Shown in pieces: positions 872 through 63,209 of a stretch of DNA of 64,000 nt. The stretch comes from an uncultured Chloroflexia bacterium (lineage in GTDB: Bacteria; Chloroflexota; Limnocylindria; Limnocylindrales; CSP1-4), in assembly GCA_963800275.1 (NCBI GenBank), contig CAWDAI010000006.1, forward strand, positions 207,130 through 271,129, given 5' to 3'. Numbering within the stretch: position 1 is the stretch's first letter; the number at the start of each line of letters is the position of its first letter. Both the position numbers and the translations under genes were made by a program. The notes under the pieces were generated by a model. That model saw nothing but the letters and a program-made list of their open reading frames with translations. It was not told the DNA's origin and made no database searches.

Positions 872-1096
872 CCGCACCCCTCACGCACCGCGACTGTCCC
901 GCACCAGCGCGCACGTCCGTGCACCACACCTGACCGCCCCGACCTTGAGCCCTCTCGGGCCACGCCCCCCGCACGCAAGTACGGGGTCATCTCCAGCCAG
1001 TGCGGCGGTACGGTGACGTCGGACGCAGATGCGACCTGCGACAGCTCTCCTGCGAGGGCGTCGTGCCCACCGGCAGCAGCGACGGAGCCAAGGCAC

Positions 1097-1669
1097 GTGA
1101 GGTCTTTCGCCCAAGCCATCCGCCAACGACTCGGGGGGGTCAGCGCGATCCTGCCCGTAGGCCGCGGCGATGAACGCGGGCAGGGCATCGTCGAGTTCGC
1201 CATGGTCCTGCCCATCTCGCTCGTGCTCTTGCTGGCCGTGGCCGACCTGGCTCGCGCCTACACCACGATGGCGACGATCGAATCGGCAGCTCGGGAGGCG
1301 GCTGACTTCGGTGCCTACGGATCGGGCAACTGGGACCCGGCGAACGAACCGTACACCCGAGACTCGATGGAGGAGCGCGCCTGCACCGCCAGCCGGCACC
1401 TGACGGACTTCGCGGGCACCACCACCAGCTGCACCAACCCGGCCATCACCGTTTCGCTGGTCGAGGCCAACGGCAACCCCGCCACCGGCTGCGACGACCC
1501 CGAGCGCACCCCGGGTCCGTGCCGGGTGAAGGTGGACCTCGACTACACCTTCAACCTGCTGGTGCCCTTCGGCATCGACTTCGACGGCGTGCGCTTCGGC
1601 GTGCCCGACAGCTTCACCTTCCGTCGCACGAGCATCTTCGCCAACTCGGACTTCATGACCAACCCATGA
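1097..1669 (+). CDS. TadE-like minor pilin (module A, gene 1)
   Basis: In-frame GTG at 1097 inside ORF 1013..1669. N-terminus carries [28 protein letters not shown], a TadE-like prepilin segment. Stop overlaps the next start (ATGA). Confidence 0.6.
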
Positions 1670-2193
1670 TCGGACGACTGATGCGGCGGCTGACCGGCCG
1701 TCATCGCTCCCGCGGACAGGCTCTCGTCGAGTTCACGCTCGTGGCGCCGATGCTGTTCCTGCTCATCCTCGGGACCATCGAGGCTGGGCGGTTCATCTTC
1801 TTCTACGAGGTCATGAACAATGCCACCCGCGAGGGTGCACGCTACGCCATCGTCCACGGCGCCAATTCGACGTGCCCCAGCGGTCCGCCGCCGCCTGGCG
1901 AGGTCAACAATTGCGACCTGCCTGGCAAGAACGTGAAGACGGCGGTGGCCGATGCCGCTCTCGAGCTGGCCGGGGTCGGCGACCTCATCGTCTTCGACCC
2001 GGTCTGGACCAACCGAAGCACGCCTGCCAACCCCAGCCCGGGAGACGCCAGCTCGGGCACCAACGCTCGCGGCGAGTACGTGACCGTCTTCCTCGACTTC
2101 ACCTACCAACCGCTCGTGCGGGAGGTCGTGGACATCCCCTTCCTGCCGGACATCAACATCAGCGCGGAGTCGACCCTTGTCATCAACTACTGA
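1666..2193 (+). CDS. TadE-like minor pilin (module A, gene 2)
   Basis: ATG at 1666 overlaps the upstream stop (ATGA). [49 protein letters not shown] matches the TadE-like motif. Confidence 0.65.
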
Positions 2194-3580
2194 GCGACAG
2201 CGCGGGCAGGTGCTCGCCATCTTCGCCCTGAGCCTGACCGTCGTGCTCGGGGCCGGAGCGCTTGCCTTCGACGGCGGCCTGATGATCCTCGAGCGTCGCG
2301 ATGAGCAGAACGCGGCAGATGCGGCGGCCATGGCCGGTGCGCGCTACGTCACCACCGACCAAACAAAGGCGCGCGACGTGGCTGCGAGCGTGGCCAGTGA
2401 CAATGGCTTCACCGCCGGCGACGGCCAGGAGATCGTCACGGTCAACATCCCGCCGGCTACGGGCAAGTTCGCGACCTGGCCCAATGCCATCCAGGTCGAC
2501 ATCCGGAACACACGTCCCTCTATCCTCGGTGCGGTCATGGGCTTCCTCAACTGGCCCGTCAGCGCCACGGCCACGGCTGCCTCGTTGGACAACGTGGGCG
2601 GTCCGTTCTCAATGCTCGCGCTCGAACCGCACGAGTGCAAGGGCATCCTTGTCGCAGGCTCAGGGGGCATCGTGGCCAACGGCAACATCCAGGTGAATTC
2701 TGACTGTCCGGACTCAGCTCTCATGCGGCAAGCCGGCGGTACGATCACGGTCACAGCGGCTGGCGCAGCGTGCAATGTGAACGGTGGCATCAAGGATGAC
2801 GGAGGCCAAGGCGACAACCTCCACTGCCTCACGGTGACTGGGGCGCCGGTAATTCCGGATCCGCTGGAGGCCCTGCCGGACGTGACGATGCCGTCGTTCC
2901 CGCAAGCGCCCGCGAAGATCGGCCACAACAAGCAAACCCCAACCGGTTGCCCGGGTAGCAACAAACCCGCCACGCTCGACGCGCCCGCCGAGTGCAAGTT
3001 CGGGGCCCAGCTCAAGGACACCACGTGGCGCCTCTATCCGGGTGTGTATCCCGGTGGCATCACCATACTGGGTGGGAACTTCTACCTGGAGCCAGGCATC
3101 TACTGGATCGGCGGAGGCGGCCTATCAATTGGCGGCAACGGCTCGTTCATCGAGTCGGTAGAGGCGGGTACAACCACGATCGGCGGTGGCGTCCTCTTCT
3201 ACAACACAGCAATCTCAGGTTCACCGCTCGGGGTCATCGACCTCAATGGCGCCTCGGCCAACATGCACCTGATGCCGCTGAACATGCCCGCAGGTACGTG
3301 GCAGTCCACTTGGAATGGGTTGATCATCTATCAGGACCGTTCCTACACCAGCGGCGCGAACGATCTCACCGTGAATGGGAACGCCTCCGTGGGCATGGAC
3401 GTCCGAGGCACCATCTACCTGCCTGACGGCGAAGTCGTCATCAATGGCAACAACGGCGACCTGGTGATGGACCAGATCATCGCGCGAACGTTCAAGGTCA
3501 ACGGAGACAGCGGCGACATCCTGGCCCTGAAGGACACGGACAACATCTACAAGTTCAACGCCGCCGGCCTCGTGGAGTAG
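2177..3580 (+). CDS. TadG-like (Tad/PF13400-type N-terminus) pseudopilin with large Gly/Asn-rich beta-rich C-terminal region (module A, gene 3)
   Basis: N-terminus [53 protein letters not shown] matches the TadG-like N-terminal pattern. 467 aa. The C-terminus is rich in G/N/T repeats typical of TadG. Confidence 0.65.
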   Translation: MSSTTERQRGQVLAIFALSLTVVLGAGALAFDGGLMILERRDEQNAADAAAMAGARYVTTDQTKARDVAASVASDNGFTAGDGQEIVTVNIPPATGKFATWPNAIQVDIRNTRPSILGAVMGFLNWPVSATATAASLDNVGGPFSMLALEPHECKGILVAGSGGIVANGNIQVNSDCPDSALMRQAGGTITVTAAGAACNVNGGIKDDGGQGDNLHCLTVTGAPVIPDPLEALPDVTMPSFPQAPAKIGHNKQTPTGCPGSNKPATLDAPAECKFGAQLKDTTWRLYPGVYPGGITILGGNFYLEPGIYWIGGGGLSIGGNGSFIESVEAGTTTIGGGVLFYNTAISGSPLGVIDLNGASANMHLMPLNMPAGTWQSTWNGLIIYQDRSYTSGANDLTVNGNASVGMDVRGTIYLPDGEVVINGNNGDLVMDQIIARTFKVNGDSGDILALKDTDNIYKFNAAGLVE

Positions 3581-3618
3581 CCGCCGGCCCGGCCCGGGCC
3601 TCAAGATCACGAGTAGGA

Positions 3619-3660
3619 CCCCTCCCTCGGACAGCATGTCCGGCGGAGGGGTTCGTTCTT
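3619..3660 (+). terminator. Rho-independent-like terminator after pilin module A
   Basis: CCCCTCC...GGAGGGG 7-bp GC stem (3619-3651) followed by TTCGTTCTT. Sits 40 nt after the TadG-like stop. Confidence 0.45.
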
Positions 3661-3858
3661 GTGCGCTCAGGTGTTAAGCAGGGTGCGCCAGCCGTTGACT
3701 TCCATCGCCACTAATCGCGCTTCGGTGTGGTCGAAAAGTACCGGGGAGCGTACCATCGTAATGTGGTTCGGGGGACCACTGGTCACAGTCGCCGGTCCTC
3801 CTCCTGGACCCGAGTCCTGAGCGCAGGCCCACGTGGGCCCGACTAGGGGGAATGGCCA

Positions 3859-4845
3859 GTGAAGCGCATCGCGGGTTCCCTGCGATCCCGCCATCGAGAC
3901 GTTTCGACTCCAGGGACTGGCCTCACGCGTTCGCGCGGCCAGTCTCTGGTGGAGTTCACCCTGGTCATTCCGGTGCTTCTCCTCATCGTTTTGGGTGCGC
4001 TTGACTTCGGCCGAGCGTTCATGGGTTGGATCGTCCTCAACAATGCTGCACGGGTCGGTGCGAACTACGCATCTCTGTATGCGCCCGCGTGGAATGGTGG
4101 TGTCAACGCGAGCACCCGCCAAGACGCGTACGAGCAACTCGTGGCAGGCGCCAGGAGAGAGGCGGCAGGTGTCTTCGCAGGCTGTGATGACGAGGTTGTG
4201 CCGAGCCCTGCTTTCCCGAGTGGGTATGAGATCGGTGACTATGCCGTCGTCGAGTTGGATTGCGGATTCCAGCCGATCACACCTCTGATCGGGGAGATCC
4301 TCTCTTCAGGTGGTGGCACCTTGCCAGTCGGAGCGAAGGCCGTGTTTCCGATTCGCACGGGCAAGATCGACAGCCCTCCCGAGGATCCGGCGGGGCTCTG
4401 CAGGTCCACTTTCACGTATCAGGCGGAAGCTGAGGACCCGCACGCGGTTCAGTTCACGAATACGACGGCTGGCGGGAGCGGGATATTCGCTTGGGACTTT
4501 GGGGATGCGGAGTACGAGGTCGTCGAGAACCCGCTGCACATCTATGAAGAGGGTCGGGCTTACAGCGTGACATTTCAGGCCGGCGGCTGTACTTCGATCA
4601 CCTACCCGGTGCTGGTGCTCGATGAGGCACCGGAGGATCCACCCCCACCTGGCGACACCCGCTGCCAGGTTCCGGTATTCGCCGACACATTGAATACTGG
4701 CGCCATCGCACTCTGGTCAGATGCTGGGTTCACCGGAACCATCACATACATCCCTGCGGTCGGCGAATGGACGGTTGCATCGCAGACGTTGGTAGGCAAC
4801 TCCCTACAGGCCTGTGATGAGGACATCACCTTGAGGAAGAAATAG
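3859..4845 (+). CDS. TadE-like minor pilin fused to a PKD domain and a Cys-bracketed C-terminal module (module B, gene 1)
   Basis: GTG start, N-terminal RGQSLVEFTLVIPVLLLIVLGALDFGRAF. PKD signature at aa ~181-254 (FAWDFGDAEYEVVENPLHIYEEGRAYSVTFQAGG). C-terminal CQVP...WSDAGFTG...C module. Confidence 0.65.
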   Translation: MKRIAGSLRSRHRDVSTPGTGLTRSRGQSLVEFTLVIPVLLLIVLGALDFGRAFMGWIVLNNAARVGANYASLYAPAWNGGVNASTRQDAYEQLVAGARREAAGVFAGCDDEVVPSPAFPSGYEIGDYAVVELDCGFQPITPLIGEILSSGGGTLPVGAKAVFPIRTGKIDSPPEDPAGLCRSTFTYQAEAEDPHAVQFTNTTAGGSGIFAWDFGDAEYEVVENPLHIYEEGRAYSVTFQAGGCTSITYPVLVLDEAPEDPPPPGDTRCQVPVFADTLNTGAIALWSDAGFTGTITYIPAVGEWTVASQTLVGNSLQACDEDITLRKK

Positions 4846-4853
4846 GACTGGCC

Positions 4854-5321
4854 ATGGACGACCAGTGCCAAGCCAAGACCGTCCCCGCGGCGAGGGAACA
4901 TCAGCTCGGTGGGGGGTTGGTGGAGTTCGCCCTGGTCCTGCCATTGCTCGTGCTTGTGATGCTTGGGTTGTTCGACGGTGGCCGGGCGATCATCTTCTAC
5001 TCAGAGTTGTCGAACGCCTCACGCGCCGGCGCTCGCGTGGCAATGGTCAACCAGTCGAACGATGCGAGTTGCTCGGGTAGCGAGCCCACGTTCAAGTGCG
5101 CCGCTGCTGCGCAGACGAGTGGTACTGGACTGACCGCCTCTGATATCGGCGACCTCACGATCGAGGGGGACGACTGCGCCCTCATCAACGCATGCAGTGT
5201 GACAGTGAAGGTGGAGTACACCTACGAGCCGATCACACCGGTCATCGGCGACCTGATCGGTCCGATCGATCTGGTGGCTGAGTCCACGATGCCCATCGAA
5301 CGCCAGCACACGGGCCCATAG
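4854..5321 (+). CDS. TadE-like minor pilin (module B, gene 2)
   Basis: [47 protein letters not shown]. 155 aa. Confidence 0.65.
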   Translation: MDDQCQAKTVPAAREHQLGGGLVEFALVLPLLVLVMLGLFDGGRAIIFYSELSNASRAGARVAMVNQSNDASCSGSEPTFKCAAAAQTSGTGLTASDIGDLTIEGDDCALINACSVTVKVEYTYEPITPVIGDLIGPIDLVAESTMPIERQHTGP

Positions 5322-5324
5322 GAG

Positions 5325-6533
5325 ATGCACATGGACACGAGGCACTTCGGCTCGCGCGAAGGAGGGCAAGTCTTGCCACTCTTCGCGCTTGGGCTTGTCA
5401 CCCTCATCGCTGCCATCGCGCTCGTGCTGGACGGCGGCTTCGCTCTCGCGAAGCATCGCGAAAGCCAGAATGCGAGCGACGCGGCGGCCGAGGCTGGCGC
5501 AGTCGTCTTGGCGGAGCACCGATCTGGTGCCGACCGAACGGATTCCGAAGTGTGGGATGCCGTACAGGGTGTCCTCACCGCGATGGGCATGGATGTTGTT
5601 GGTTCCAGCGCCGAGTACACCAGGATCGATGGGACCGGACTTGGGCTGATGGTCGGCGAGAGCGGCGGTTCTGCGTCCGCCCCACCACCAGCGGCGTGGG
5701 GAGTCACCGTCAATGGTTCGTTGCCTGTCGACACCTTTTTCGCACGCGTCATCGATATCGACGAGTTCGACGCAGCGACGACGGCAACTGCCATAACCGG
5801 GTATGGCAAGCCCGCGGGAACTACGCTGCTTCCTGTCACGCCACCGATCACGATGGTCACGTGTGATGGCACCAACCGGCCGCTGAGCACGGCAACGCGA
5901 TGGGGCACAGAACAGATCTACAAAGTGCCCCTGTGCTCCAACGGTGCCGGCAATGTCGGTTGGTTGGATTGGTCAGACGAATACGACGAGAATGAGGGGG
6001 GCGGCAAGGTCGAGATCGAGGACCAGATCAGGAGTCCGTACATTCCCCCTCCAGGGATCTTGATCCCGGCGTGGCACCAAGTAGCCGAGACTGGCAGCCC
6101 GAACAAGATCGGGATCGAGGACGCCCTGCGAGAGCACGACGGTGAGATTGTCCTTCTTCCTATCTTCGATGCATGGTGCACAGGAGACGTGGAGCCGAAC
6201 AGCGACGGGGTTCTGGACTGCCCTGAGGGCGATGTGAGCCCAGTCGAGAGCCCCGATCCCAGTAACCCAGGTGGCGGCGCCAAGATGTGGTATCACCTCC
6301 AGGAGATCGCCGCGTTCGAGCTTTGCTCGCCGGCGATTGACGGCTGCACCGAGCATGGTGCGTACATCAACTCAGCGACCGAGGCCACCCAGATCTGCGA
6401 ATCGGGTAACGGATCCACGCGTTGTCTCGTTGGCAAGTTCGTCAACTTCATCCCAGGCCCGGGTTACGTCACCGGCGAGCTCGATACCACGGCTGGGCCT
6501 TCGAACTTCCTCGTCATCCAACTGATCAGGTAG
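5325..6533 (+). CDS. TadG-like pseudopilin (module B, gene 3)
   Basis: EGGQVLPLFALGLVTLIAAIALVLDGGFALAKHRESQNASDAAAEAGAVVLA, a TadG-type N-terminus. 402 aa. The 3-nt gap to the previous gene suggests co-transcription. Confidence 0.65.
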   Translation: MHMDTRHFGSREGGQVLPLFALGLVTLIAAIALVLDGGFALAKHRESQNASDAAAEAGAVVLAEHRSGADRTDSEVWDAVQGVLTAMGMDVVGSSAEYTRIDGTGLGLMVGESGGSASAPPPAAWGVTVNGSLPVDTFFARVIDIDEFDAATTATAITGYGKPAGTTLLPVTPPITMVTCDGTNRPLSTATRWGTEQIYKVPLCSNGAGNVGWLDWSDEYDENEGGGKVEIEDQIRSPYIPPPGILIPAWHQVAETGSPNKIGIEDALREHDGEIVLLPIFDAWCTGDVEPNSDGVLDCPEGDVSPVESPDPSNPGGGAKMWYHLQEIAAFELCSPAIDGCTEHGAYINSATEATQICESGNGSTRCLVGKFVNFIPGPGYVTGELDTTAGPSNFLVIQLIR

Positions 6534-6535
6534 GT

Positions 6536-6561
6536 CCCGACGCTCCAGCAGCGGAGTCGGG
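6536..6561 (+). terminator. Hairpin after pilin module B (possible terminator, no U-tract)
   Basis: CCCGAC-g-CTCC agcagc GGAG-t-CGGG, immediately after the stop at 6533. Confidence 0.3.
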
Positions 6562-6877
6562 CCAGGTTGGGCCGGGAGGAGAACAACTGCGGTGCGGCAC
6601 GCCCTTGTGGTCCCATCGCAGACGTCGGGACAGCCATCCGAGCCATACGTTCACGAATGCTAGTCGAGTTTGACGGCTGCATCAGGCATAGCCTCCAGAT
6701 TTCCCGGTTCTGGTCCATGGTGGACCGCTGGACACCAGTGCGGTGATGTGCAGTCACGCCGTTGATTCCTGTCAGCAGAAAGGCCCAGCGCGCCTATGCA
6801 CTTTGGTCAGGGGACGGTACGATTGAGCCCAGCCGAGGTACCAAGGGTCATCCCTCTGCTGTTCGTCCGAGCGCCAG

Positions 6878-7789
6878 ATGCCTGCCCACTCTCCGGAGGC
6901 GAATGTGGAACCAAACAAATTCAGGGCCGGACCAGAGACCTCCCGGTCGTCATCGTCGCGGTCGGCTGGTCAGGCGCTCGTCGAGTTCGCGCTCGTGCTG
7001 CCCGTCATGCTTCTCCTACTGCTGATGGCAGTCGATTTCGGTCGTTTGTTCACGACCTACATCGCTGTCAACAACGCCGCGCGGGAGGGTGCGTTCTACG
7101 CTGCCGAGCACGCCAAGGACACCCCGTTCGACCAGTCGACGTTCAACGCCGCGGCGCGAGCGGCCGCAGAGAGGGAGGTCAACGTCCAGAGCCAGGGCGG
7201 AGAGGGCACGCTGTCGGTCAGCCTGCCGGTCTGCTCGGTCGCCGGGGTACCATCCAGCACAGTGTCGTGCGAGACGGCGGCTGCCAGTGGTGGTGTAACG
7301 GGCTACCAGGCCACTGTGACGGTCTCTCGGCCCTTCTCGCTGATCACCCCCATCGTGGGCGACCTCTTCGGCGGTTCGCTTGACCTGACCGCGACATCAA
7401 GCGCGCCGGTTCTGAACGCGCCGAGCGTGATCGTGCTCCCCGGGGCTTCGCCGACTCCTACTCCGTCGCCAACCCCCAGCCCGTCGCCTACCCCGAGCCC
7501 TACGCCCGACCCAGGAGCGTCGCCCAGTCCGTCCCCCGACCCGAACGCCAGCCCGACGCCCACCCCCTCGCCTACGCCTGAACCCACCTGCACAGTGCCC
7601 GACGTGACCTCGAGCGGCAACATCCACTGGTACTACAACACTGATCCCAACGCCCTCGATGCCTGGCAGGTGGCCAACTTCACCGGAGCGCTCGTGGACG
7701 ACACCTCCAACCAGAAGATCAAGAGTCAGACGCGCGCCGCCGGATCGGTGGTGGTGTGTTCCAGCAGCATGACTGTGAGCGACAAGTGA
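6878..7789 (+). CDS. TadE-like minor pilin with Pro/Thr/Ser-rich linker and Cys-bracketed C-terminal module (module C, gene 1)
   Basis: [30 protein letters not shown] motif. Alternative GTG start at ~6906 follows a GGAGG RBS. Linker [21 protein letters not shown]...SPTPEP (aa 189-236) precedes CTVP...WQVANFTG...C. Confidence 0.6.
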
Positions 7790-8352
7790 ACCGACATTCC
7801 ACCCGCACCCGCCAGGATGGCCAGACGCTCGTGGAGTTCGCCTTGGTCCTGCCGTTCTTCATGCTCATCCTCTTCGGGGTCTTCGATGCCGGACGGCTCG
7901 TGTTCACCAACTCGACCCTCTCCCAGGCGGCACGTGAGGGTGCGCGTCTGGCGGCCGTGGAGGCTGGCAACGTCGGTCTCAGCGACAGCGATTGCGTCGA
8001 CACCGCCGCCGATGTCGGGACCTCGGGTGGTATCGGTGCCAAGGTGTGCCCACCTTCCTTGACCTCGCTCAAGACGGACGTGGAGTCCGCCGTGGATCGG
8101 ATGACCGCGGCGGTCGGTCCACTAGCGGCCGTCTATTTCTCCTGCGACCCAGACGGCACGGAGCCGAGTGGCGCCTGGACCGAAACAAGCGAGGGCAATG
8201 GCTGTGACGACGGAAGTGGCAACAGCCTCGGTGCCACCGGCGAATTGGTCTCGGTGCGGATCGAGCACGCCTATCAACCCATCACGCCGGTCATCGGCGA
8301 GATCTTCGGCACGATCACGCTCAGCGGGTCGGCCAGCATGACCATCAACTAG
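7786..8352 (+). CDS. TadE-like minor pilin (module C, gene 2)
   Basis: GTG at 7786 overlaps the upstream stop (GTGA). N-terminus [40 protein letters not shown]. The ORF could extend to an ATG at 7756. Confidence 0.6.
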
Positions 8353-8361
8353 GAGGTCATC

Positions 8362-9426
8362 GTGACGGACCATTCACGGCAGAAGGGCCAAGCTCTTGCG
8401 CTCCTCGCCATCGCCTTGGCTGCAATCGTGGCTGGCGTCGCTGTCGTCGTCGACGGCGGATATGCGTATGCACAGCGTCGCGCCTCGCAGAATGCGGCCG
8501 ACTTCGCGGCGATGGCGGGCACTCGCCTCATCGGCCAGGCGCGGACGAACAGTTCCGTTAGTGGCGGACAGGTCCGGAGCGCGGTCGATACGTCGCTCAC
8601 CTCGAACGGTGCCTCGCTCGTCTCTGGCACATACATCGATGAGGACGGCCAGGCCATCGGTGCCCTCTCAACAGGCGGGTCGATCCCGCCGAACGCTTTT
8701 GGACTCGTCGTGCAGGCCAAGACAGACTGGCAGCCGTTCTTGCTCGGAGTCATCGGGATCACTGACTGGGCGGCCGGAGCCAAAGCCACCGCCAAGACGC
8801 CGGGCGAGGCGCTCGGCGGTGGGGTCATGCCGGTGGGGATCCAGGACTCTCAATTCGATGGCCTCGTGCCCTGTCCCATCACCGATCTCGGCACCTGCAT
8901 CGATCAGAACCTCACGTCGGGGGCACTCAACATCCCCGGGGGGTTCGGCTGGCTCAAGTTCGGCCTCCAAGGTACCGGGGGCAAGTGCAGCTGGACGAGC
9001 AGTCTGGGCATGATCGCCGACGGCGGCTGCCAGACCAGCAAGACCTACCTTGATTCGCAGATCGGCCCGCCGGCCGACTCGCACGGCTGCTGCACTGCGG
9101 TGGACCAGAGCGGCAGCGTGGACCTCATCGGCAGCCTCACCGGCAACGAGTGGGGAGACCTCAGCTTCTACATCGATAACCGTATCCCCGTTTGGGTGCC
9201 GATCTGGGACTCGCCGCAGGGAACTGGCGCGAACTCCTCCTACCACATCGTCGGATTCGGCGCGATCGTCTTCACCGGTGAGAACGAGCACGCCAAGTGG
9301 CTGGAAGGTGCGGCTATCGCAGATGCCTGCAAACCCGGTACGGCCATAACTGGCACGTCGTATTGCACGGAACCCGGTGGGCCCTTCGTCTTGGGCGCGA
9401 CCGGGGAAGTGTTCCTGGTGAACTGA
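8362..9426 (+). CDS. TadG-like pseudopilin (module C, gene 3)
   Basis: AGGAGG RBS, then GTG. N-terminus QKGQALALLAIALAAIVAGVAVVVDGGYAYAQRRASQNAADFAAMAGTRL. 354 aa. Confidence 0.65.
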   Translation: MTDHSRQKGQALALLAIALAAIVAGVAVVVDGGYAYAQRRASQNAADFAAMAGTRLIGQARTNSSVSGGQVRSAVDTSLTSNGASLVSGTYIDEDGQAIGALSTGGSIPPNAFGLVVQAKTDWQPFLLGVIGITDWAAGAKATAKTPGEALGGGVMPVGIQDSQFDGLVPCPITDLGTCIDQNLTSGALNIPGGFGWLKFGLQGTGGKCSWTSSLGMIADGGCQTSKTYLDSQIGPPADSHGCCTAVDQSGSVDLIGSLTGNEWGDLSFYIDNRIPVWVPIWDSPQGTGANSSYHIVGFGAIVFTGENEHAKWLEGAAIADACKPGTAITGTSYCTEPGGPFVLGATGEVFLVN

Positions 9427-34836: not shown

Positions 34837-35953
34837 CTATCGAGCGGTGTCGACGTGGCGCGCGAGCCAGGTCTGGACGGTCAAGGCATCGATCCGTTCA
34901 GAGACTTGCAGCGTGGAGCCATCGAGGGCGATGCCCTTGGAGCGCAGGTCCAGCGCAAGCAGCTCGACGAGCGCCAGCTCCAGCCCCGGCGCGGTCCAGG
35001 TGCGGGCTTGCTCGGCCAGCTTCTGGGCCCGGAACGGCTGCATCTTGAGCTCCCTGACCAGCTGGGGGTTGGGGGTGCCCACGTCGATGTGTTCGCGCAC
35101 CACGATGAGGTCGCGCAGCCGGCGATGGAGCTGCGATACCAGCACCGGCAGGGGCGTACCCTCGGCCAACAGTCGCTCGGCGAGTGCGGTGGCGCTGGCA
35201 GCCGAGCGCGACCCGACCGCATCGAGGAAGGCCCAGGTCGAGCCTGGCACGGTCTCGGTCACGAGCGCGTCGACATCCTCGGGCTCGATCGTGCCCTCGG
35301 GCTTGTAGAGAGCCAGCTTCTCCAGCTCGCTGTTGGCCAGCTCGGTCCGCCGGCGACGATCGACATCGGTCTCGCGGACATGGCCGCCCACGCGCTCGGC
35401 CAGCAGCCGGGCGGCCGCCGGCCGCAGTTCCGATCCGAGCTCGCGCGCACGCTTCACCAGCCACGGCTCGAGCTGGCCGGCAGCCGGCACCTCGGAACTC
35501 CTGGACCACGCCACCAGACGCAGCCACGGCGTCCCGCAGCAGGCCCCTTCCCGATGGCCCCTTGGCACCCGACGCCGTCAGATCGGTGACGCACAGGGCA
35601 TTGCCCGGCGGCACCGAGGCGACGAGGGCCAGGAGCCGCTCGCGAGCGCTCTTCTCGGCCAGGAGCCCGCCGGGTTGGCGCAGGACCACCAGCGTCCCGG
35701 CACCGAAGAGCGGGGCCATGCCCAGGTGCTGTTCGATGCCGTCGAGCGCCCGGGCACGGCGCTTGGCCAGGCCCGCGGAAGCCCCCTCCTCGCCGGCGTC
35801 GTCATCGAGGTTGACGCGCCAGGCCTCCATGGTCTCGCCTGCTGGTGCCACTCGATCGGCATAGCTCCGTGCCGCCCGCTCGATCATGAAGGCGTCCTCG
35901 CCCCAGAAATAGGCCAGGGCCGGCGCCTCGGTCGACTCGCTCACCTTGCCCAT
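34837..35953 (-). CDS. holA: DNA polymerase III delta subunit (HolA), apparent frameshift near 35495
   Basis: The N-terminal domain (frame of ORF 34898..35953) reaches ...GGVVQEFRG. The continuation SEVPAAGQLEPWLVKRARELG...ELANSELEKLALY and the C-terminal domain are in the frame of ORF 34837..35568. Confidence 0.6.
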
Positions 35954-36573
35954 GCAGCCGCCCGGCCTTGCGGCCCGGGCAGGCCATGAGCGACGGCGTG
36001 GTCGAGTGCATCCCCCACCCAGCGCAGGCGCTCGACCTCACACGGCTCGATCGCCGCCGCCGCGCAGACGGCATCCTCCAACCGGCGCGCCACGATCCGC
36101 GCCTGCTCGAGCTTCGCCACGTACTCCGGATGCCTGCGCTCCCAGCGCTCGAAGCGCTGGTCCAGAGAGACCACCCGTTGCGTGGCTCGCTTGTCGGCAT
36201 AGGTCACGATGCGCTCCTCCAGCGGAGCGTCCTGCAGCCAGTGCTCGATATCGGGATCGGTGAAGTGCATGACCGGATGGGCGGTGAGAGTGCGGGCCAG
36301 CTCCGGGTGCCCGGCCTCGGTCACCCAGGCGGCGCCGGCGGCGCCGTGCGGCAGGGCCCTCAGCGGGTGGTCGTCGGGCAGCGCCTTGTCGACGTCGTGG
36401 AGGAGCGCGGCCGTTTCCACCAGGCGCCGGTCCACCGGAACCCCGGCGCGCGCGCTGCGATAGGCCAGGAAGGCCGCCACCTCGGCGACCACCGTCATGT
36501 GCTGCAGCAAGCGCGGCGAGGGTGACGTGGACAGGAGCAGGGAGAGCGCCTCGGTGCGCGTTGGTACCGCCAT
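35941..36573 (-). CDS. HD-domain hydrolase YqeK-like (bis(5'-nucleosyl)-tetraphosphatase family)
   Basis: Start MAVPTRTEALSLL at ~36573. AALLHDVDK HD motif. 211 aa, typical YqeK size. Confidence 0.7.
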   Translation of the reverse strand: MAVPTRTEALSLLLSTSPSPRLLQHMTVVAEVAAFLAYRSARAGVPVDRRLVETAALLHDVDKALPDDHPLRALPHGAAGAAWVTEAGHPELARTLTAHPVMHFTDPDIEHWLQDAPLEERIVTYADKRATQRVVSLDQRFERWERRHPEYVAKLEQARIVARRLEDAVCAAAAIEPCEVERLRWVGDALDHAVAHGLPGPQGRAAAWAR

Positions 36574-39052
36574 CGGGACGAATGTAGCAGGGGTCGGAGA
36601 GCGAGGTCGCGGACCTGGCGCCCGCTGGCCGGTGCACGCAGGCGGGCGACCCGACCGCGGCGAGCAGCGTGCCCGCGGAACGCGTCCGCCCGTCGAAGTC
36701 GACAGTGAGCGTGCCCCCGCGATCGGTCCGCCAGACCGATGCACCGACCGACGCCAGGCGGGCGAGCGTGGCCGGCGCGGGATGGCCATAGGGGTTGCCG
36801 GTGCCGGAGCTGATCACCGCCAGGCGCGGGCGCAGGGCCTCCAGCAGTGGCTGGCTGGTAGACGTGGCGCTGCCGTGGTGGGCGACCTTCAGCAGGTCCC
36901 AACGGTAGCGGCGCCCGGCGAGCGCTTCGAGCAGATCGGCGTCGTGGTCGTCCTCCGCGTCGCCGGTGAGCAGGATGTGCTGCTCACCGACGTGGACCGC
37001 GAGCACGATGGAGGTGCCGTTGATGGCTCGCCCGTCGGACAGGGGGCGGTCGGGCAGCAGCTCCCGCGGCGGCCACACCACCTCGATCGCCGCCTGACCC
37101 AGTCTCAGGCGATCACCGCGCAGGACCCGCGAGCGGGGGATGGACAGGCGGGCCGAGGCCGCCCGCAGCTCGAGCACACCGGCGCCCTCGCTGGGCATGC
37201 CCGTCTCGACCACTCGTCCGACCCGATAGCGTGGTGCCAACCCGGCGAGCCCACCGGCATGATCCTCATGTGGATGCGTCAGGAGCGCTGTGTCGATCCT
37301 CCTGTCCCAGGTCGGGATGCGCTCGTCGAGTCGCCGCACCAGGACGTCGGGATCGGGGCCGCCGTCGACGAGCATGCGCTCACCGTCGCGTGCCTCCAGC
37401 AGGATGGCATCGCCCTGGCCGACGTCGAGGACGCTGACCCGAAGGGCCGCCGCCGGGCCTGCCACCAGCGCCACCGAGACCGTGGCTACGAGGGTCAGCG
37501 AAAGCCCGGCCGCGACGAGCCGCCACCGGCCCCTGTGCGCGGTGGGTGGCGCCGGACCGGTAGGCGTCGGGGCCAGGGTGGTCAGCTCCGGCCGGCGGCG
37601 GCTGCGACGTGTCCGCCGGAGCACCACCACCAGGATGGCGAGGGCGACCAGCGCGCCGACGATGTCCGATGGCTCCGCCAGCTCCACATTGGCCAGGGGT
37701 ACCCGGGCGAGCAGCGACGCTCCCCGGGTCATGAGCACGAGCGGCAGCCAGGCTGCCAGCAGCAGCGGCGCGAGCAGGAGCGACAGCTGTCCGACCGCGA
37801 GGAGCGGGGCCACGACCACGCCGATCACCGCACCGAGCATGGCCAGCGGCACGACCGGCGCCACCAGCAGGTTCGCCAGCGGCGAGATGAGCGAGAGTCG
37901 ACCGAAGTGGAACAGCACCAGGGGCAGGGTCGACAGCTGAGCCGCCAGGGAGACACCCAGCGACTCGCTGAGCCAGCGCGGACCACGGTCGCGGCAGGCG
38001 CGTCGCACCGCTCGTTCGGCCGGGCCGCCCAGTGCGAGCAGGCCGGCCGTGGCGGCCATCGACAGCTGCAGGCCGATGTCCTCGATCATGCCGGGATCGG
38101 CCAGCAGGAGCCCCCAGCAGGCGAGCCCGAGGGCGGCCGCGGCGCCCGACGGCCGGCCGCCCTCGCGGGCGATGAGCACGACCCCGCCCATGACCGCCGC
38201 GCGCACGACGCTGGCGTCGGCACCGGCGAAGACGGTATAGGCCACGATGGCCGCGAGCACGATCGCGCTGCGCCAGCGCCGCCGCAGACCGGTGGCGCGC
38301 AGCAGGGCCGTGGCGATGCCCGCGACGAGCGCGATGTTCCAGCCGCTGATGGCGACCACGTGGGTCAGACCCGTGACCGTGAAGTCGTCCGCCACGGCCT
38401 GCGAGACTCGTTCGCGCAGGCCGATGAGGATGCCCGATGCGAGTCCGGCCTCGGGTTCGGGGACCGCCCGCCCCAGGGCGCCATCGACAGCCCATCGAAG
38501 CTGCTCGACCGTGGGCCCGAGGCCACTGCCGTGACCGCGCAGCTCCAGGGCATGGGCCTTGAGCGTGCCCACCGCTCCCCGGCTCTCGAGGAAGTCGGCG
38601 AAGCCTGGTGCACTTGCGGGTGGGCCCTCGACGACGCCGCGCACGTGGACGCGGTCGCCGGTCACCAGTGCCGGATGGCGAGGCAGCCAGGCGTACACGA
38701 GCCAGCCCTCGGGTCTCCCGGGCGGCTCGAGCGTGATGAAGGCGCGCTGGTCAGGCCCCTTGGGAGCGGAGACGTCGGTGACCGTGCCGTCCCATTCCGC
38801 GCTACCGGTGACGAGCGCGGGGACGACGCTCCCGGGACCGGCCAGCAGGGCCACCAGGCTGGCTCGCAGCGCGACCGTGCCGAAGGCTAGCGCAAGCGCG
38901 GCCGCGCTGCGCCGGTGAGCCACGGCCAGCACGAACGCGGCGGACAGTCCGATCGTCCCCGCGACCGCCGCCAGGGGGCCAGCATCGCGCAGGAGCAGCG
39001 CCGCCACGAGGGCGCCGATGGCCAGCCAGCCGGCGCGAGGGATCCGCTGCAT
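36038..39052 (-). CDS. comEC: DNA internalization competence protein ComEC/Rec2 (competence + metallo-beta-lactamase domains)
   Basis: Polytopic competence domain, then MBL motifs LLTHPHEDHAGG and KVAHHGS. The recognizable domain ends near TLTVDFDG (~36680), but the ORF stays open to 36038, overlapping yqeK by >500 nt; the 3' end is doubtful. Confidence 0.7.
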   Translation of the reverse strand: MQRIPRAGWLAIGALVAALLLRDAGPLAAVAGTIGLSAAFVLAVAHRRSAAALALAFGTVALRASLVALLAGPGSVVPALVTGSAEWDGTVTDVSAPKGPDQRAFITLEPPGRPEGWLVYAWLPRHPALVTGDRVHVRGVVEGPPASAPGFADFLESRGAVGTLKAHALELRGHGSGLGPTVEQLRWAVDGALGRAVPEPEAGLASGILIGLRERVSQAVADDFTVTGLTHVVAISGWNIALVAGIATALLRATGLRRRWRSAIVLAAIVAYTVFAGADASVVRAAVMGGVVLIAREGGRPSGAAAALGLACWGLLLADPGMIEDIGLQLSMAATAGLLALGGPAERAVRRACRDRGPRWLSESLGVSLAAQLSTLPLVLFHFGRLSLISPLANLLVAPVVPLAMLGAVIGVVVAPLLAVGQLSLLLAPLLLAAWLPLVLMTRGASLLARVPLANVELAEPSDIVGALVALAILVVVLRRTRRSRRRPELTTLAPTPTGPAPPTAHRGRWRLVAAGLSLTLVATVSVALVAGPAAALRVSVLDVGQGDAILLEARDGERMLVDGGPDPDVLVRRLDERIPTWDRRIDTALLTHPHEDHAGGLAGLAPRYRVGRVVETGMPSEGAGVLELRAASARLSIPRSRVLRGDRLRLGQAAIEVVWPPRELLPDRPLSDGRAINGTSIVLAVHVGEQHILLTGDAEDDHDADLLEALAGRRYRWDLLKVAHHGSATSTSQPLLEALRPRLAVISSGTGNPYGHPAPATLARLASVGASVWRTDRGGTLTVDFDGRTRSAGTLLAAVGSPACVHRPAGARSATSLSDPCYIRPDGGTNAHRGALPAPVHVTLAALAAAHDGGRRGGGLPGLSQRARRGSGGPAPGGNGRAPPRRRQGAARRPPAEGPAARRRRRRLGDRGRAPGAGPHSHRPSGHALHRSRYRALAAGRSAGGAHRDLCRQASHATGGLSGPALRALGAQASGVRGEARAGADRGAPVGGCRLRGGGDRAV

Positions 39053-39070
39053 CGGACGCGTCCCGGGGAT

Positions 39071-39772
39071 TCAGCCCGCGGTGACGAGCTCCTCGATGTC
39101 GCCGAAGACCGACTCCCCGACGAGGCCGCGGCTGCGCAGGTCGCGGATAGACTGGAAACGTCGTTCGGCGCGCGCGGCCATGATCTTGCCGGCGGTCACC
39201 GGGCCGATGCCGGGCAGCGACTCGAGCTCGCTCTGGCTGGCCGCGTTGAGATCGATCCGACCGTCGCGGGCGGCTGATCTCGGCCCCTCGCGGTCGAGAC
39301 CCAGCTCCGGTACCAGCACCTTGGCACCATCCTCCAGGCGCTGTGCCAGGTTCAGCTGCTCACTCGCGGCGACGATATCGACTCGCGGCGCGAAGCCGCC
39401 GGCCGCCTCGATGGCATCGCCCACGCGGTCGCTCGCGCGCAGGCGGTGGAGGCCCGGGCGCACGACCGCGCCGGCCACGTCGACCAGGATGTCCTCGCCG
39501 GATGGCAGGGGCTCGATCGCCGCGACCGGCGGCAGCTCGAGCGGCTCGCCGATGGCGTCGGCCGGCGGAGCGGAGCCCACCACGAGGATGAACGCCAGCA
39601 GCCCCGCGGCCAGCCCACCGATAGCGAGACCGCCCAACCCCAGCAGGAGGGGCACCAGCCACCATGCCCGCGAAGTGGGTGCCGGCTCGTCACCGGGGCG
39701 TGCGGAGGCGGCTTCAGGGCCCGCCGGTGTCTCGGAGGAGAAGGACCGCCACGGTGGCGTGGCTTGGTTCAA
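39071..39772 (-). CDS. comEA: Competence protein ComEA (helix-hairpin-helix DNA-binding)
   Basis: N-terminal TM. C-terminal RIDLNAASQSELESLPGIGPVTAGKIMAARAERRFQSIRDL, the ComEA HhH signature. Confidence 0.8.
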   Translation of the reverse strand: MNQATPPWRSFSSETPAGPEAASARPGDEPAPTSRAWWLVPLLLGLGGLAIGGLAAGLLAFILVVGSAPPADAIGEPLELPPVAAIEPLPSGEDILVDVAGAVVRPGLHRLRASDRVGDAIEAAGGFAPRVDIVAASEQLNLAQRLEDGAKVLVPELGLDREGPRSAARDGRIDLNAASQSELESLPGIGPVTAGKIMAARAERRFQSIRDLRSRGLVGESVFGDIEELVTAG

Positions 39773-45771: not shown

Positions 45772-45847
45772 TGGTGGAGCGACGGGGACTTGAACCCCGG
45801 ACCTTCTGCATGCCATGCAGATGCTCTCCCAGCTGAGCTATCGCCCC
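45772..45847 (-). tRNA. tRNA-Ala (anticodon GGC), CCA encoded
   Basis: Reverse complement GGGGCGATAGCTCAGCTGGGAGAGCATCTGCATGGCATGCAGAAGGTCCGGGGTTCAAGTCCCCGTCGCTCCACCA. G3:U70 Ala identity pair. Anticodon loop AT-GGC-AT. T-loop GGTTCAAGTCC. Confidence 0.85.
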
Positions 45848-45869
45848 GTGCGGCGCATCATACCGAATC

Positions 45870-46592
45870 ATGGCAAACCCCGCGACCACTCGCCATCCGT
45901 ACATGGTGCGCCGCTCCGACCGCGCTCGGCGGGCACGGGTGATGGTGGACCGTGAAGGCCGGACGGTCGTGGTCCTGCCGCGCCGATGGCCGCTCGTCGA
46001 AGCCGAGCGGCTGGTGGCCCGGCACGCGGCCTGGATCGAGCGTCACGTCTCGCGGATCACGATCGTCCAGGCGAGGCTCGGCACACGTCCGACGCTGGGG
46101 GAGGGGCGGGTCCTGAGCGTGGCCGGTGAGACGCTGCGGGTATCGGTGGTCGACGGCGTGTCCGCTCGCCCGGCGCGCGGCCGAGTGGAGGCGGTGCCCG
46201 GGGGCCTGGTGGTGCGGCTGGGCCGGGACGGACGCGACACGGCGGCGGTGCTCGAGCCCTGGCTGCGAGTCCGGGCACGGGAGGTGCTCCAGGCCCGGGT
46301 CGCGGCGCGGGCGGCCGAGATGGAGGTGCTGCCGGGACGCCTGACGATCCGCGACCAGACCAGCCGCTGGGCGTCGGCATCGGCGAGCGGATCGCTCTCG
46401 TTCAGCTGGCGGCTGGTGCTGGCGCCGCCGTTCGTGCTCGATGCGGTCGTGGTCCACGAGCTCGCACACCTGCGCATCCGCAACCATTCGCGACGCTTCT
46501 GGGAGCTGGTCGAGCGGTACGCGCCGCGCACCGCGGAGGCGCGTCGGTGGCTGCGCGAACATGCCCCCGAGCTGCGCGCGGCCCTGGACTAA
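45870..46592 (+). CDS. YgjP-like metal-dependent hydrolase (DUF45/WLM-type, HExxH)
   Basis: C-terminal [18 protein letters not shown] (HExxH...NHS) signature of the YgjP/DUF45 family. Confidence 0.75.
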
Positions 46593-46869
46593 AGGAGTGT
46601 CCGGAGGTTCGCCGGTCCTCTAAGTGCCAGCCAGCGGACTTGCGCTGCTGGCCTATGGACTCGAGGTGCCGGCCAGCGGACGCACGCGGATGCGGCGCAG
46701 GTGTGCATGCGGGGCACACCCGCGTCGGGTCAGGCCCATGCCGGCGTCCCGGATCTGGCGGACGTGCCTGTCTGGCACATCACGGACGATGACGTGCCCA
46801 AGGCCGGCATTTGCGTGTCTGGCACGCACGGCATCCCTCCAGCAGATCCCGCCAGCCCTGCGGTGTGAC

Positions 46870-47361
46870 CTAGCAGCGCGAGAGGACGACGAAGGCTGCG
46901 AGCTCGTCGGCCACGCGCTGGGCATCACTCTCCACGTGGGGCGCAGCCTTGCGAGGCTTGGGATTGGTGCGGAAGTCCTCGACCGCCAGGTCCAGGTCGC
47001 CGAGGCGGTACTTGAGCCGCGTCGATGATCGCTCCAGCTCGTCCGCGCGGTCACCGAGGTCGGCATCGTCCAGCTCGTTGTAGGCGGCCACCAGCTTCTC
47101 GAGCTCGATGTCGAGCGCGACCCGGTTGGGCAGCTTGAGCTCGACCGCTCGCAGCGACGCCAGCCGGGTCTCCATCTCCGTCAGGAGCTGACACAGGCCG
47201 GTATCGGGATCAGGGCTCGGCAGCAGCGAAGGGCTCGGGCTCGGGCTCGGTGCGACGACGGACGGGCCGGGAGAAGGACTGCCCGGAGCGCTCCCGCCGC
47301 CACCGCAGGCGCCGACGACGAGTGCGGTCGCAGCGAGGCAGGCAAGGAGACGGTTGGACAC
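46870..47361 (-). CDS. Hypothetical lipoprotein
   Basis: MSNRLLACLAATALVVGACGGGG (lipobox LVVGAC). PSPSPSPS linker. Coiled-coil-like remainder. Confidence 0.5.
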   Translation of the reverse strand: MSNRLLACLAATALVVGACGGGGSAPGSPSPGPSVVAPSPSPSPSLLPSPDPDTGLCQLLTEMETRLASLRAVELKLPNRVALDIELEKLVAAYNELDDADLGDRADELERSSTRLKYRLGDLDLAVEDFRTNPKPRKAAPHVESDAQRVADELAAFVVLSRC

Positions 47362-47444
47362 CCGGACAGTCTCGCAGACGATCGTGGACTCGGCAGTGAT
47401 CGGTCCCCCAGGTGGGCCGTGCGGTTCTGGGTGAAGATGTGCCC

Positions 47445-49076: not shown

Positions 49077-49136
49077 GCGCTGCGGGCTCCATCATAGGCG
49101 GGCCCCCGATGGACCCAGCCAGGAGTTGAGAGAGAC

Positions 49137-50052
49137 ATGCTACTGATCACCATCGTGCTCATCGTCGTCGGCATCGCGCTGATCGTGGCCGGCATCGCCA
49201 TCGTGGCCCAGGCCCTCAGCACCCGCAGTGGGGGCCTGACCGTGGGCAAGGCGGCGCTCGCGGTGGCCTCGGTCGCCCTTGGGGTCGTCGTCTCGGTGGG
49301 CGCCCTCGGCCTGAACGAGATCGGACCCGGGCCAGGTCGGCGTCAAGATCCGTTTCGGCCAACCGCAGGAAGGCACGCATGCCTCGGGACTCAGGCTGGT
49401 TCCCCTGGTCGAGACCGCCATGGTCTACGATGGGCGCGTGCAGGCCTACAACTTCGAGGGCATCGCGGGGGCCACCAAGGACCTCCAGCCGGTGAAGCTG
49501 TCCGGGCTCATCAACTACCACATCGACGGCGCGCAAGGCGGACAAGGTCCTGCAGGACATCGGCGGCCCCGACCGATTACGCGGCGAAGGTCTTCCTGCG
49601 GCCGGCCAACACCGCGCTCAAGGAGATCACCCGCGATACAACGCGGCCGAGGTCATCGGCAAGCGCGACGAGATCGGGCAGCTGACGCTGAGCGCGCTGC
49701 AGGAACGCATGGACCCGTTCAACATCATCGTGGATCGCGTGTCGGTGGAGAACGTCATCCTCAACGAGGCCTTCCTGAGTCGGTGGAGGCCAAGCAGATC
49801 GCCCAGCAGGACCAGGAGCGCGCGACCTTCGAGAAGCAGCGCCAGGTGACGCTGGCACAGGCGGACGCCGAGGCCACCATCGAGCGGGCCCGGGGCCAGG
49901 CGCAAGCGAATGACCTCATCAACAACAGCCTGACCGAGAACCTGCTGCGCTGGCAGACGATCCAGCAGCTGGCCGACAACATCCGGGTCATGCTGCTGCC
50001 CTCGGACCAGAACTTCATCCTCGACACGAGCGGCATGCAGCTGGACGAGTGA
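49137..50052 (+). pseudogene. SPFH/band-7 (prohibitin/HflC-like) gene disrupted by multiple frameshifts
   Basis: N-terminal TM helix (frame 0). GQVGVKIRFGQPQEGTHASGLRLVPLVETAMVYDGRVQAYNFEGIAGATKD (frame 1). Further SPFH-like segments (TDYAAKVFLRPANTALKEITRD, YNAAEVIGKRDEIGQLTLSALQERMDPFNIIVDRVSVENV, EAKQIAQQDQERATFEKQRQ...) alternate between frames. At least four shifts in 0.9 kb. Confidence 0.6.
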
Positions 50053-50083
50053 CTGCCGGCTGACAGCGTGGCTGCCAACGCGG

Positions 50084-50503
50084 ATGGTCTCGTGGCCACG
50101 ACTTCACATCTACCCAGGGGGAGGCAATGCCGCCGCTGAAGGCTCCCGAGTCCACAAAGCTCGCCCGCACGCGTCTTGGGCCCTCGCTCAAGGCCGCCGG
50201 GTTCAAGCGAACGCCCAAGGCAGCGCCCGCCAGCTGGTCGAACTCCGACACCACCAGAACCAGGCCATCGCGAAGCTGCCGCCGCCCGACATGCGGTTCA
50301 TCGGCGGCCTGCCTCCGAGCACGCAGGAGCACGTTGTGGAAGGGTGGCGCCCACGGACCAACCCGTATGGCCGCGGTGGTGAGGACATCTGGATGAGGCA
50401 GGGCAGCCGAGAGGACGTGGAAGCGCTCCTCGACTTCAGCTCGGCGCAGTTGCCGGACGTGATCGAGACGTTCATCTCGCAAGCCCGCGCCACCGCCTCC
50501 TGA
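50084..50503 (+). CDS. Hypothetical protein, possibly frameshifted (two overlapping ORFs 50127..50396 and 50084..50503)
   Basis: MPPLKAPESTKLARTRLGPSLKAAGFKRTPK (one frame) continues plausibly as ...QLVELRHHQNQAIAKLPPPDMRFIGGLPPSTQEHVVEGW...EALLDFSSAQLPDVIETFISQARATAS in the other. No family recognized. Confidence 0.25.
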   Translation: MVSWPRLHIYPGGGNAAAEGSRVHKARPHASWALAQGRRVQANAQGSARQLVELRHHQNQAIAKLPPPDMRFIGGLPPSTQEHVVEGWRPRTNPYGRGGEDIWMRQGSREDVEALLDFSSAQLPDVIETFISQARATAS

Positions 50504-51836: not shown

Positions 51837-51936
51837 GGATCGCCGGGTGGCCGAGTTCCAATGCAGCTATCGACTGGCCACCCGGCAATTCCGCTCGGTG
51901 TCCGGCAGAAGTGACCGCCGGCTGACGGCGGGAAGG

Positions 51937-52924: not shown

Positions 52925-52927
52925 CCC

Positions 52928-63203: not shown

Positions 63204-63209
63204 ACCGAG

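Follow-up and report, generated by a model that had tools for sequence, protein, structure and literature searches.

Few adhesive appendages of bacteria are as widespread as Tad pili, and the source of their specificity was unclear until interchangeable tips were proposed in Myxococcus in 2025. In the Tad-like Kil system of Myxococcus xanthus, four paralogous kilLMN clusters encode TadE/F/G-like proteins that form interchangeable heterotrimeric tips (Tip1-4), each bundled through its three alpha-1N helices. Any one of these tips primes the pilus and deletion of all four abolishes it, as was shown experimentally in 2025; the tip families are restricted to Myxococcota (PMC12075869, Nat Commun 2025). 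Here, we describe a 64-kb stretch of DNA (the window) from contig CAWDAI010000006.1 of an uncultured Chloroflexia bacterium, in which nine genes for Tad-type minor pilins form three tandem triads, each consisting of two TadE-like genes and one TadG-like gene (modules A, B, and C, with genes A1 to C3). With a probability of roughly 60%, we consider that these genes encode three tips that serve as alternatives on a Tad pilus, and that their locus is a hypervariable cassette site.

Like Kil (PMC12075869), the genome described here contains several paralogous three-gene clusters of TadE/F/G-like genes, the three in the window. Each of them encodes a short, an extended, and a large pilin, the last with a novel head, a long/short/large size pattern that matches KilL, KilM, and KilN (PMC12075869). 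The clusters lie away from the core machine, as most of them do in Kil, and the role we propose, that of interchangeable tips that prime assembly, would be the same. Unlike Kil, the triads belong to Chloroflexota and are placed in one tandem array at a single site, whereas the Myxococcus clusters are separated in the genome. Their heads include a ComZ-like solenoid and a Cys-rich head, with no link to predation, and the order permutation and allele replacement between close relatives reported below have not been described for Kil. The window thus appears to resemble Kil in the way it may work, and membership in the tip1-tip4 families is not claimed.

The canonical tadE-tadF-tadG genes of Aggregatibacter, Caulobacter, and Pseudomonas share with the window their PF07811 and PF13400 N-termini, the G/xxxxE signal on the two small proteins, and the order E-F-G. 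Canonical tad loci contain one such set, embedded in the core, whereas the window contains three sets with no core nearby. In addition, the window differs in the add-on domains of its position-1 proteins, in the pilin-like cleavage signature of its G proteins, and in the heads of these G proteins, which are unrelated to each other except for the homologous heads of B3 and C3. ComZ (PDB 6qvi; PMC6561018), which A3 resembles in its predicted structure, is part of a type IVa competence pilus and binds DNA, whereas A3 has a Tad-type leader and belongs to a TadE/TadE/TadG triad. The GspK/PilK-type capping pilins of type II secretion systems and type IVa pili show no sequence relationship to the window's proteins and belong to sets of four subunits (HIJK) rather than three. 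In Synechocystis, alternative minor-pilin sets specify different functions and a beta-solenoid tip subunit is involved, as would be the case here, but its pili are of type IVa, its two sets lead to two filament types, and it has no tandem array of Tad triads (bioRxiv 10.64898/2026.02.12.705559).

While multiple TadE/F/G tips are already known from Myxococcus, our results fit an extension of this principle to a new phylum, to a tandem arrangement, and to cassette variation at the level of strains. We found no paper that names both Limnocylindria and pili, and none of the literature matches listed described Tad arrays with several triads in Chloroflexota. Finding the same logic in a lineage of soil Chloroflexota that is abundant, uncultured, and unrelated, and of which more distant relatives are labelled Limnocylindria, would argue that multi-tip Tad pili are a general strategy rather than a specialisation of predators.

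All nine open reading frames (ORFs) of the array are intact and are encoded on the + strand between window positions 1013/1097 and 9426, in the order E,E,G/E,E,G/E,E,G. Profile searches placed each of the nine proteins above the Pfam threshold, in agreement with a preliminary description of this DNA, made from the sequence alone, which had listed six TadE-like and three TadG-like genes on one strand. The six proteins in positions 1 and 2 of the triads matched PF07811 (TadE; E-values 1e-10 to 1e-17, 41.9-64.3 bits, cutoff 22.9), and the three in position 3 matched PF13400 (Tad; cutoff 22.3 bits), with A3 additionally matching Tad_C. Matches to NCBIfam were all below threshold and concerned actinobacterial TadE models. 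When the 64 kb was translated in six frames, the pattern G-x4-E-[FY] followed by a hydrophobic stretch occurred exactly six times, always in the TadE-like genes of the array.

Module A is composed of the position-1 pseudopilin A1 (1097..1669, 41.9 bits, predicted site ERG/QGIVEF), the short position-2 pseudopilin A2 (1666..2193, 57.3 bits, RG/QALVEF), and the large TadG-like minor pilin A3 (2177..3580, 36.1 bits). The ORF of A1 is open from 1013, and its start at 1097 was taken from an independent gene call on an identical contig, L001 (compared contigs and loci are given as L numbers). In module B, B1 (3859..4845, 56.4 bits) is followed by the short B2 (4854..5321, 51.4 bits, LG/GGLVEF) and the large B3 (5325..6533, 34.1 bits). 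Module C comprises C1 (6878..7789, alternative start 6905; 59.7 bits), the short C2 (7756..8352, alternative GTG 7786; 64.3 bits), and the large C3 (8362..9426, 26.8 bits, KG/QALALL). On short contigs identical to the window, the gene calls of others place the starts at 1097 for A1, 1681 for A2, 5331 for B3, and 6905 for C1. The G+C content at third codon positions (GC3) of the array genes, where computed, was 0.79-0.87.

The position-1 proteins of two modules carry C-terminal additions, as had been suggested: a PKD-like domain and a domain of ~60 amino acids (aa) in B1, and a Pro/Thr-rich linker and a domain of ~65 aa in C1, with none in A1. The PKD_4 match of B1, at 21-24 bits, stays under the cutoff of 27, which its orthologues in L004 (42.3 bits) and L007 (37.4 bits) exceed. 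The C-terminal domain of C1 can be aligned to the C-terminal end of the B1-like protein in L004. In isolation, the C-terminal domains of B1 and C1 had no Pfam match, on which ground a PASTA label for these ends was rejected; PASTA reached significance only in position-1 proteins that are more distant, for example that of L005 (45.5 bits).

The signal sequences distinguish the large proteins from the small ones. Five of the six TadE-like proteins of the window carry G/Q-x-L-V-E-F, and B2 carries G/GGLVEF. Across 102 triads, Gln at +1 was found in 99 position-1 and 98 position-2 proteins, and Glu at +5 (Glu5) in 99 and 100 of them, respectively. The G proteins have the same Gln at +1 (101/102), but at +5 they have Ile, Leu, Val, or Met in all 102 cases, never Glu. 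Accordingly, A3, B3, and C3 keep Gly(-1)/Gln(+1), with Ile or Leu at +5. The Flp pilins of the clade all read G/QTLVEY (13/13), which is the same signature as that of the TadE-like proteins, and all nine proteins of the window share one leader type with Gly at -1 (G/Q, or G/G in B2). Priming and tip complexes are capped by a subunit without Glu5, and filaments assemble from tip to base (PMC10191384). Judged by sequence, the largest subunit of each triad, which lacks Glu5, has the profile expected of a GspK/PilK-like tip-capping pilin. That Glu5 is kept in the two small proteins and never in the large one offers a simple criterion at the sequence level by which TadG-like proteins can be recognized as tip-capping pilins rather than membrane assembly factors.

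Single-chain structure models of A3 and B3 both contain a long alpha-1 helix of the pilin type with a beta-sheet after it. In A3, the N-terminal helix and pilin sheet are followed by a C-terminal beta-solenoid head, so that a beta-solenoid is grafted on a pilin fold as in ComZ; the tip pilin ComZ of Thermus thermophilus (PDB 6qvi; PMC6561018) was indeed its best structural match, at 13% sequence identity. The B3 model has a Cys-rich, beta-rich head with a GNVGWLDW motif after its helix, which gave weak matches to GspK and XcpX and no close solved fold. The head of C3 (GGFGWLKF) is homologous to that of B3 but shorter (hhalign with the B3 family, 99.7% probability over 265 columns). B3 and C3 share a head from which that of A3 is distinct, and the columns of invariant Cys and motif residues are conserved across the families. 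The earlier suggestions that heads and add-on domains differ between modules, and that the modules could represent interchangeable tip complexes, fit the models and the Glu5 pattern, with alternative use as the likely mode. A von Willebrand factor A-type C-terminal domain occurs in some proteobacterial TadG proteins, although not universally; the G proteins of the window had no Pfam match to it.

The triad is also the usual arrangement among relatives of this genome. The B3 family had 186 matches and the A3 family at least 774, both conserved over their full length. Scanning species-representative genomes for the B3 family gave 79 loci, nearly all in metagenome-assembled genomes of Chloroflexota, many of them labelled Candidatus Limnocylindria or Limnocylindrales. 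The core locus of this clade reads flp - tadZ - cpaF - tadB - tadC - response regulator - histidine kinase - one or two E-E-G triads - DUF192 (L005, L012, L017, and L029 among others, by local annotation). The two-component pair between tadC and the first triad, and DUF192 after the last, were seen in L005, L012, L017, L020, L029, and others, at locus coordinates ~6000-8500. Because the triad follows flp-tadZ-cpaF-tadB-tadC in the core locus of more distant relatives, it is evidently the normal minor-pilin set of the clade. No secretin was seen in these core loci. Among the 37 loci of at least 15 kb, one triad was present in 12, two in 19, three in 3, and four in 1, with two or more in 23 of the 37. 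Loci with a core had only one flp-cpaF core within the 10-kb flank, adjoining one or two triads. Three modules, which had been called unusual, are so only in comparison with proteobacterial tad loci; tandem triads are the rule in this clade. Median mature lengths over the 102 triads were 250 aa for position 1 and 151 aa for position 2, and the add-on domains of 100 position-1 proteins were PKD (18), PASTA (11), Big_3_5 (1), and InlK_D3 (1). Many of the triads without a core in the flank are still preceded by the two-component pair; the array in the window has neither this pair nor DUF192.

The modules of the window are only ~30% identical to one another. Direct repeats in their DNA consist of diverged coding motifs at 60-73% identity and nothing else, by which repeats from recent duplication or recombination were rejected. 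Instead, each of the three module types has its own orthologues in other Chloroflexota genomes, at 37-97% identity, as in the A-B-C array of L007 (37-78% identical to the window), the C-A-B array of L013 (43-77%), and the A-B array of L009. We built hidden Markov models (HMMs) of position 1 and position 2 from the B-type triads of other genomes. These models assigned C1 to position 1 (116.7 against 90.6) and C2 and A2 to position 2 (101.2 against 60.2 and 63.8 against 44.2, respectively), and separated B1 (168 against 66 for position 1) from B2 (146 against 59 for position 2). A1 was ambiguous, with 49 for position 1 and 52 for position 2. Because the HMMs are position-specific in this way while the modules share ~30% identity, these data support the view that an ancestral E1-E2-G triad was duplicated whole, long ago, and that A, B, and C are old paralogous module types. 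The idea of a triplicated cassette thus stands as far as the triad is the repeated unit (with C1, C2, and A2 placed by the HMMs and A1 ambiguous); a recent triplication is contradicted by the low identity and by the separate orthologues of each type.

The array lies between a HAD hydrolase gene at 14-871 and an S41 peptidase gene that starts at 9622. L004, L007, L010, and L086 share these flanks: their modules are preceded by HAD and followed by the S41 peptidase and an ABC transporter. The order of the modules varied: A-B-C in the window and L007, C-A-B in L086/L087 and L013, B, a fragment of C1, and A in L004, C-B without A in L010, and A-B followed by the contig end in L009. The adjacency A>B was counted 5 times, B>C and C>A 3 times each, and C>B once, while A>C and B>A were not seen, a distribution that fits circular permutation of a single cyclic order, with the reservation that these genomes are not independent samples.

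L086 derives from the same sample as contigs that are identical to the window. At the nucleotide (nt) level, its upstream flank is 91.0% identical (92% aa for PfkB, 93% for HAD) and its downstream flank 97.0% (93% aa for S41, 92% for the ABC transporter). Module A is 85.3% identical by blastn (884-3700 of the window against L086 8708-11522; 96/97/81% aa for its three proteins) and follows a C-type triad in L086. Module B had no nucleotide match (44/58/48% aa), and module C matched in patches at 69-74% nt (51/48/60% aa). These identities for B and C are as low as, or lower than, those to genomes whose flank proteins are themselves only 54-78% identical. In L089, a third haplotype of this sample, an A-type triad (43-50% identical) precedes one of the B type (58-74%). 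The shared module-A block includes the 5' leader of the module (884..1096, + strand), of which L086 has a homologous stretch between its C-type and A-type triads, as well as the hairpin behind A3, and both move with module A.

Within this block, A1 and its L086 orthologue are 96% identical in the mature region and 92.5% over the full gene, with a ratio of nonsynonymous to synonymous substitution (dN/dS) of 0.14. The ratio was 0.04 for A2 and 0.04-0.17 across module A, showing purifying selection; the value for S41 was discarded since L086 is frameshifted there. Synonymous divergence from L086 was 0.07-0.31 for the flank genes, A1, and A2, and 0.49-0.83 for A3. This pattern points to genes that are functional and whose allelic lineages become deeper towards the middle of the array, not to simple decay. 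The best reading of these data is that the locus between HAD and S41 behaves as a hypervariable cassette site, at which B and C alleles would have been replaced between close relatives. This strain-level shuffling and allele replacement is a more notable feature than the triplication. With near-identical flanks, 44-60% identical B and C modules, and a permuted order in a co-occurring strain, tip variation can be tested in existing long-read soil metagenomes.

We tentatively extend this to the possibility that the HAD-S41 site is a dedicated tip-cassette locus, in which triads with their own promoter and terminator are permuted and ancient alleles are exchanged among co-occurring strains under balancing or diversifying selection. 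If true, such selection might be driven by, for example, phages specific to the pilus or partitioning of attachment substrates, and the locus would be the Tad-pilus counterpart of tail-fibre and pilin-variation loci.

Some relatives carry incomplete modules. C3 of L007 (12431-13113) is truncated and matches C3 of the window in patches over ~43% of the length, L004 has only a fragment of C1 (11439-11827), and in L013 a short second A3-like solenoid fragment (7619-7965) follows A3. Several of these relatives are long-read assemblies with apparent frameshifts, so that degraded modules in them need to be read with care.

Most likely, each triad encodes a self-contained priming and tip complex of a Tad (type IVc, Flp) pilus. 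Two pseudopilins with the Flp class-III signal, one long and modular (position 1) and one short (position 2), would join the large TadG-like minor pilin, which lacks Glu5 and would be the first to assemble and cap the tip. The three triads would then provide three alternative tips for one Flp filament, to be assembled by a Tad machine whose genes lie in another part of the genome. According to the models, tip A may present the ComZ-like beta-solenoid head; tip B would combine the Cys-rich head with a PKD-bearing partner, and tip C the smaller B-type head with a partner that ends in a small domain after a Pro/Thr-rich linker. The modules look like separate expression units, most clearly module A, whose leader and hairpin travel with it.

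Several points weigh against this proposal. The genes scanned over the window, and those in another 3.6 kb upstream of it, included no homologue of Flp, TadZ, CpaF, TadB, or TadC, and none of them had a Pfam match to Peptidase_A24, as expected of a TadV/CpaA prepilin peptidase; tblastn with the clade's own Flp, TadZ, CpaF, and TadB gave no match in the 64 kb. The earlier statement that the window lacks Flp, a prepilin peptidase, and the Tad ATPase agrees with this, and the detachment from a core holds across the ~68 kb that can be read, with no Tad core within ~4.6 kb upstream or 54.5 kb downstream of the array. The added 3.6 kb, from an identical 7.3-kb contig, contain genes for PfkB and a pseudouridine glycosidase and small unknown ORFs. 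Because no core was found there or in the window, a cognate Tad machine in the genome has to be assumed from conservation in the clade. The junction between modules A and B is unconfirmed by the short-read contigs identical to the window, of which L001 ends at 3661 and L002 starts at 3698, both in the first inter-module gap and just past the module-A hairpin; the A>B adjacency was seen in five other loci. Such a break in the assembly graph at 3661-3698 would be expected if co-occurring strains carry different modules after A. Furthermore, the classical literature lists TadG as a component of assembly in the cytoplasmic membrane, not as a pilin (PMC10191384, Table 1). Lastly, the duplicated tad genes of Micrococcus luteus are all required for piliation, according to the citation of Angelov 2015 in PMC6916266, and because this organism needs both of its duplicated tad loci, paralogues need not be interchangeable.

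This last point leads to an explanation that we consider unlikely, but the strongest competitor: the triads are not interchangeable, and either each serves a Tad machine and Flp filament of its own or all nine proteins act jointly in one pilus. Apart from Micrococcus luteus, in which genes of both loci are needed as far as PMC6916266 reports from Angelov 2015 (see also PMC4322843), it has a precedent in Synechocystis, which primes two filaments with two minor-pilin sets (bioRxiv 10.64898/2026.02.12.705559), and it would account for the retention of at least two triads in many relatives and of all three types in the window, L007, L013, and L086. Separate machines are at odds with the single flp-cpaF core found in the 10-kb flank of one or two triads at core-bearing loci, and with the leader type common to all nine proteins. 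The loss or degradation of single modules, such as the missing A of L010, the C1 fragment of L004, and the truncated C3 of L007, is also easier to understand if modules are redundant.

The role of the TadG-like proteins allows for another, improbable, explanation, in which they are membrane-anchored assembly factors rather than pilins and their heads face the cell wall instead of the pilus tip. PASTA domains, which some position-1 partners carry, occur in cell-wall-associated proteins. The absence of Glu5 would be expected of an uncleaved anchor as much as of a capping pilin, and TadG has been listed in a cytoplasmic-membrane sub-complex (PMC10191384, Table 1). An anchor does not explain why G(-1)/Q(+1) is conserved in 101 of 102 G proteins as it is in Flp and the TadE-like proteins, nor the pilin-type alpha-1 helix and beta-sheet predicted in both models, nor why A3 is best matched in structure by a tip pilin. 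In Myxococcus, moreover, the KilN/TadG homologues were modelled as the backbone of the tip, and the tip clusters as a set are needed for pili (PMC12075869). Finally, the array could be a decaying relic of duplicated minor-pilin genes without present function, in line with its detachment from any core, its G+C content below that of its surroundings, and the degraded copies in some relatives. This we regard as very improbable: the nine ORFs are intact, with a GC3 of 0.79-0.87 where computed, module A has a dN/dS of 0.04-0.17, the invariant Cys and motif columns are kept across families, and ribosome-binding sites and translational coupling are preserved.

Inside the modules, the genes are closely packed. 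The ATG of A2 overlaps the stop of A1 (ATGA), whereas A2 and A3 overlap by 17 nt, with a TTG start. Gaps of 8 nt (B1/B2), 3 nt (B2/B3), and 9 nt (C2/C3, with AGGAGG) are accompanied by AGGAG-type sites, and C1 and C2 may share a GTGA overlap (GTG 7786) or overlap by 34 nt if the upstream GTG is used. The tight packing by short overlaps and 3-9-nt gaps that had been described is thus largely borne out, with the exception of A2/A3, where the overlap is 17 nt and not 4. Between the modules, gap 1 (3581..3858) and gap 2 (6534..6877) measure 278 and 344 nt, close to the 280-340 nt estimated before. Neither contains a Flp-like ORF, and Flp pilin genes hidden in the gaps or upstream of HAD were rejected, as no ORF there has the G/xxxxE[YF] signal; a 53-aa ORF upstream of HAD encodes a plain transmembrane peptide.

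Gap 1 contains a terminator-like hairpin 3' of module A (3616..3654, + strand; 16-nt arms, 88% complementary), followed by UUCGUUCUUGUG, a U-rich tail. For the 90 nt from 3581 to 3670, the folding energy is -50.9 kcal/mol (z -4.7), and 0 of 200 shuffled sequences were as stable. The hairpin of gap 2 is no better than shuffled sequence (z -0.7), so that of the two hairpins first proposed to open the gaps only that of gap 1 is significant. Gap 2 also had no Rfam match. At gathering thresholds, two tRNAs were the only Rfam matches of the window, with none in the array, and a consensus scan for sigma-70 promoters and terminators found no promoter-like site and nothing in the gaps. The gaps had been thought lower in G+C, but at 0.655 (gap 1) and 0.625 (gap 2) they are not below the array (0.639); rather, the array as a whole lies below the rest of the window (0.699), with module B the lowest of the modules (0.616). 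This difference of ~6 points would fit an exchange between lineages as well as a weak codon bias of genes with low expression. On the - strand, an ORF at 6464-6757 (97 aa, called as 72 aa on L002 and L003) covers the stop of B3 and part of gap 2; it has no Pfam match on record and is probably spurious in GC-rich DNA.

The rest of the window is ordinary chromosome. It encodes peptide and sugar ABC transporters, pyrG, transaldolase, rho, obg, nadD, rsfS, holA, comEC, comEA, luciferase-like oxidoreductases, leuS, a two-component system, and an imuA-like/imuB/dnaE2 cassette. The holA - comEC - comEA cluster (34837-39772, - strand) accounts for a DNA-uptake channel and a DNA receptor. Genes such as comEA and comEC are common bacterial genes for competence and DNA uptake. 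Tad pili mediate transformation in Micrococcus luteus (PMC4322843), and the presence of comEC and comEA in the same window as the ComZ-like A3 model is a lead towards DNA uptake, and only that. Among two tRNA-Ala genes (45772-45847 and 51937-52012), the region 45772-53701 contains six likely genes without significant Pfam match, including one for a 554-aa protein (47412-49076) with a weak sortase-like C-terminus (25.1 bits, cutoff 26.6) and weak Kelch matches. The mutagenesis cassette of an imuA-like gene (RecA fold), imuB, and dnaE2 lies at 55692-63427 on the + strand; a frameshift or assembly error is suggested by its dnaE2, which falls into two overlapping ORFs (59319-61370 and 61223-63427).

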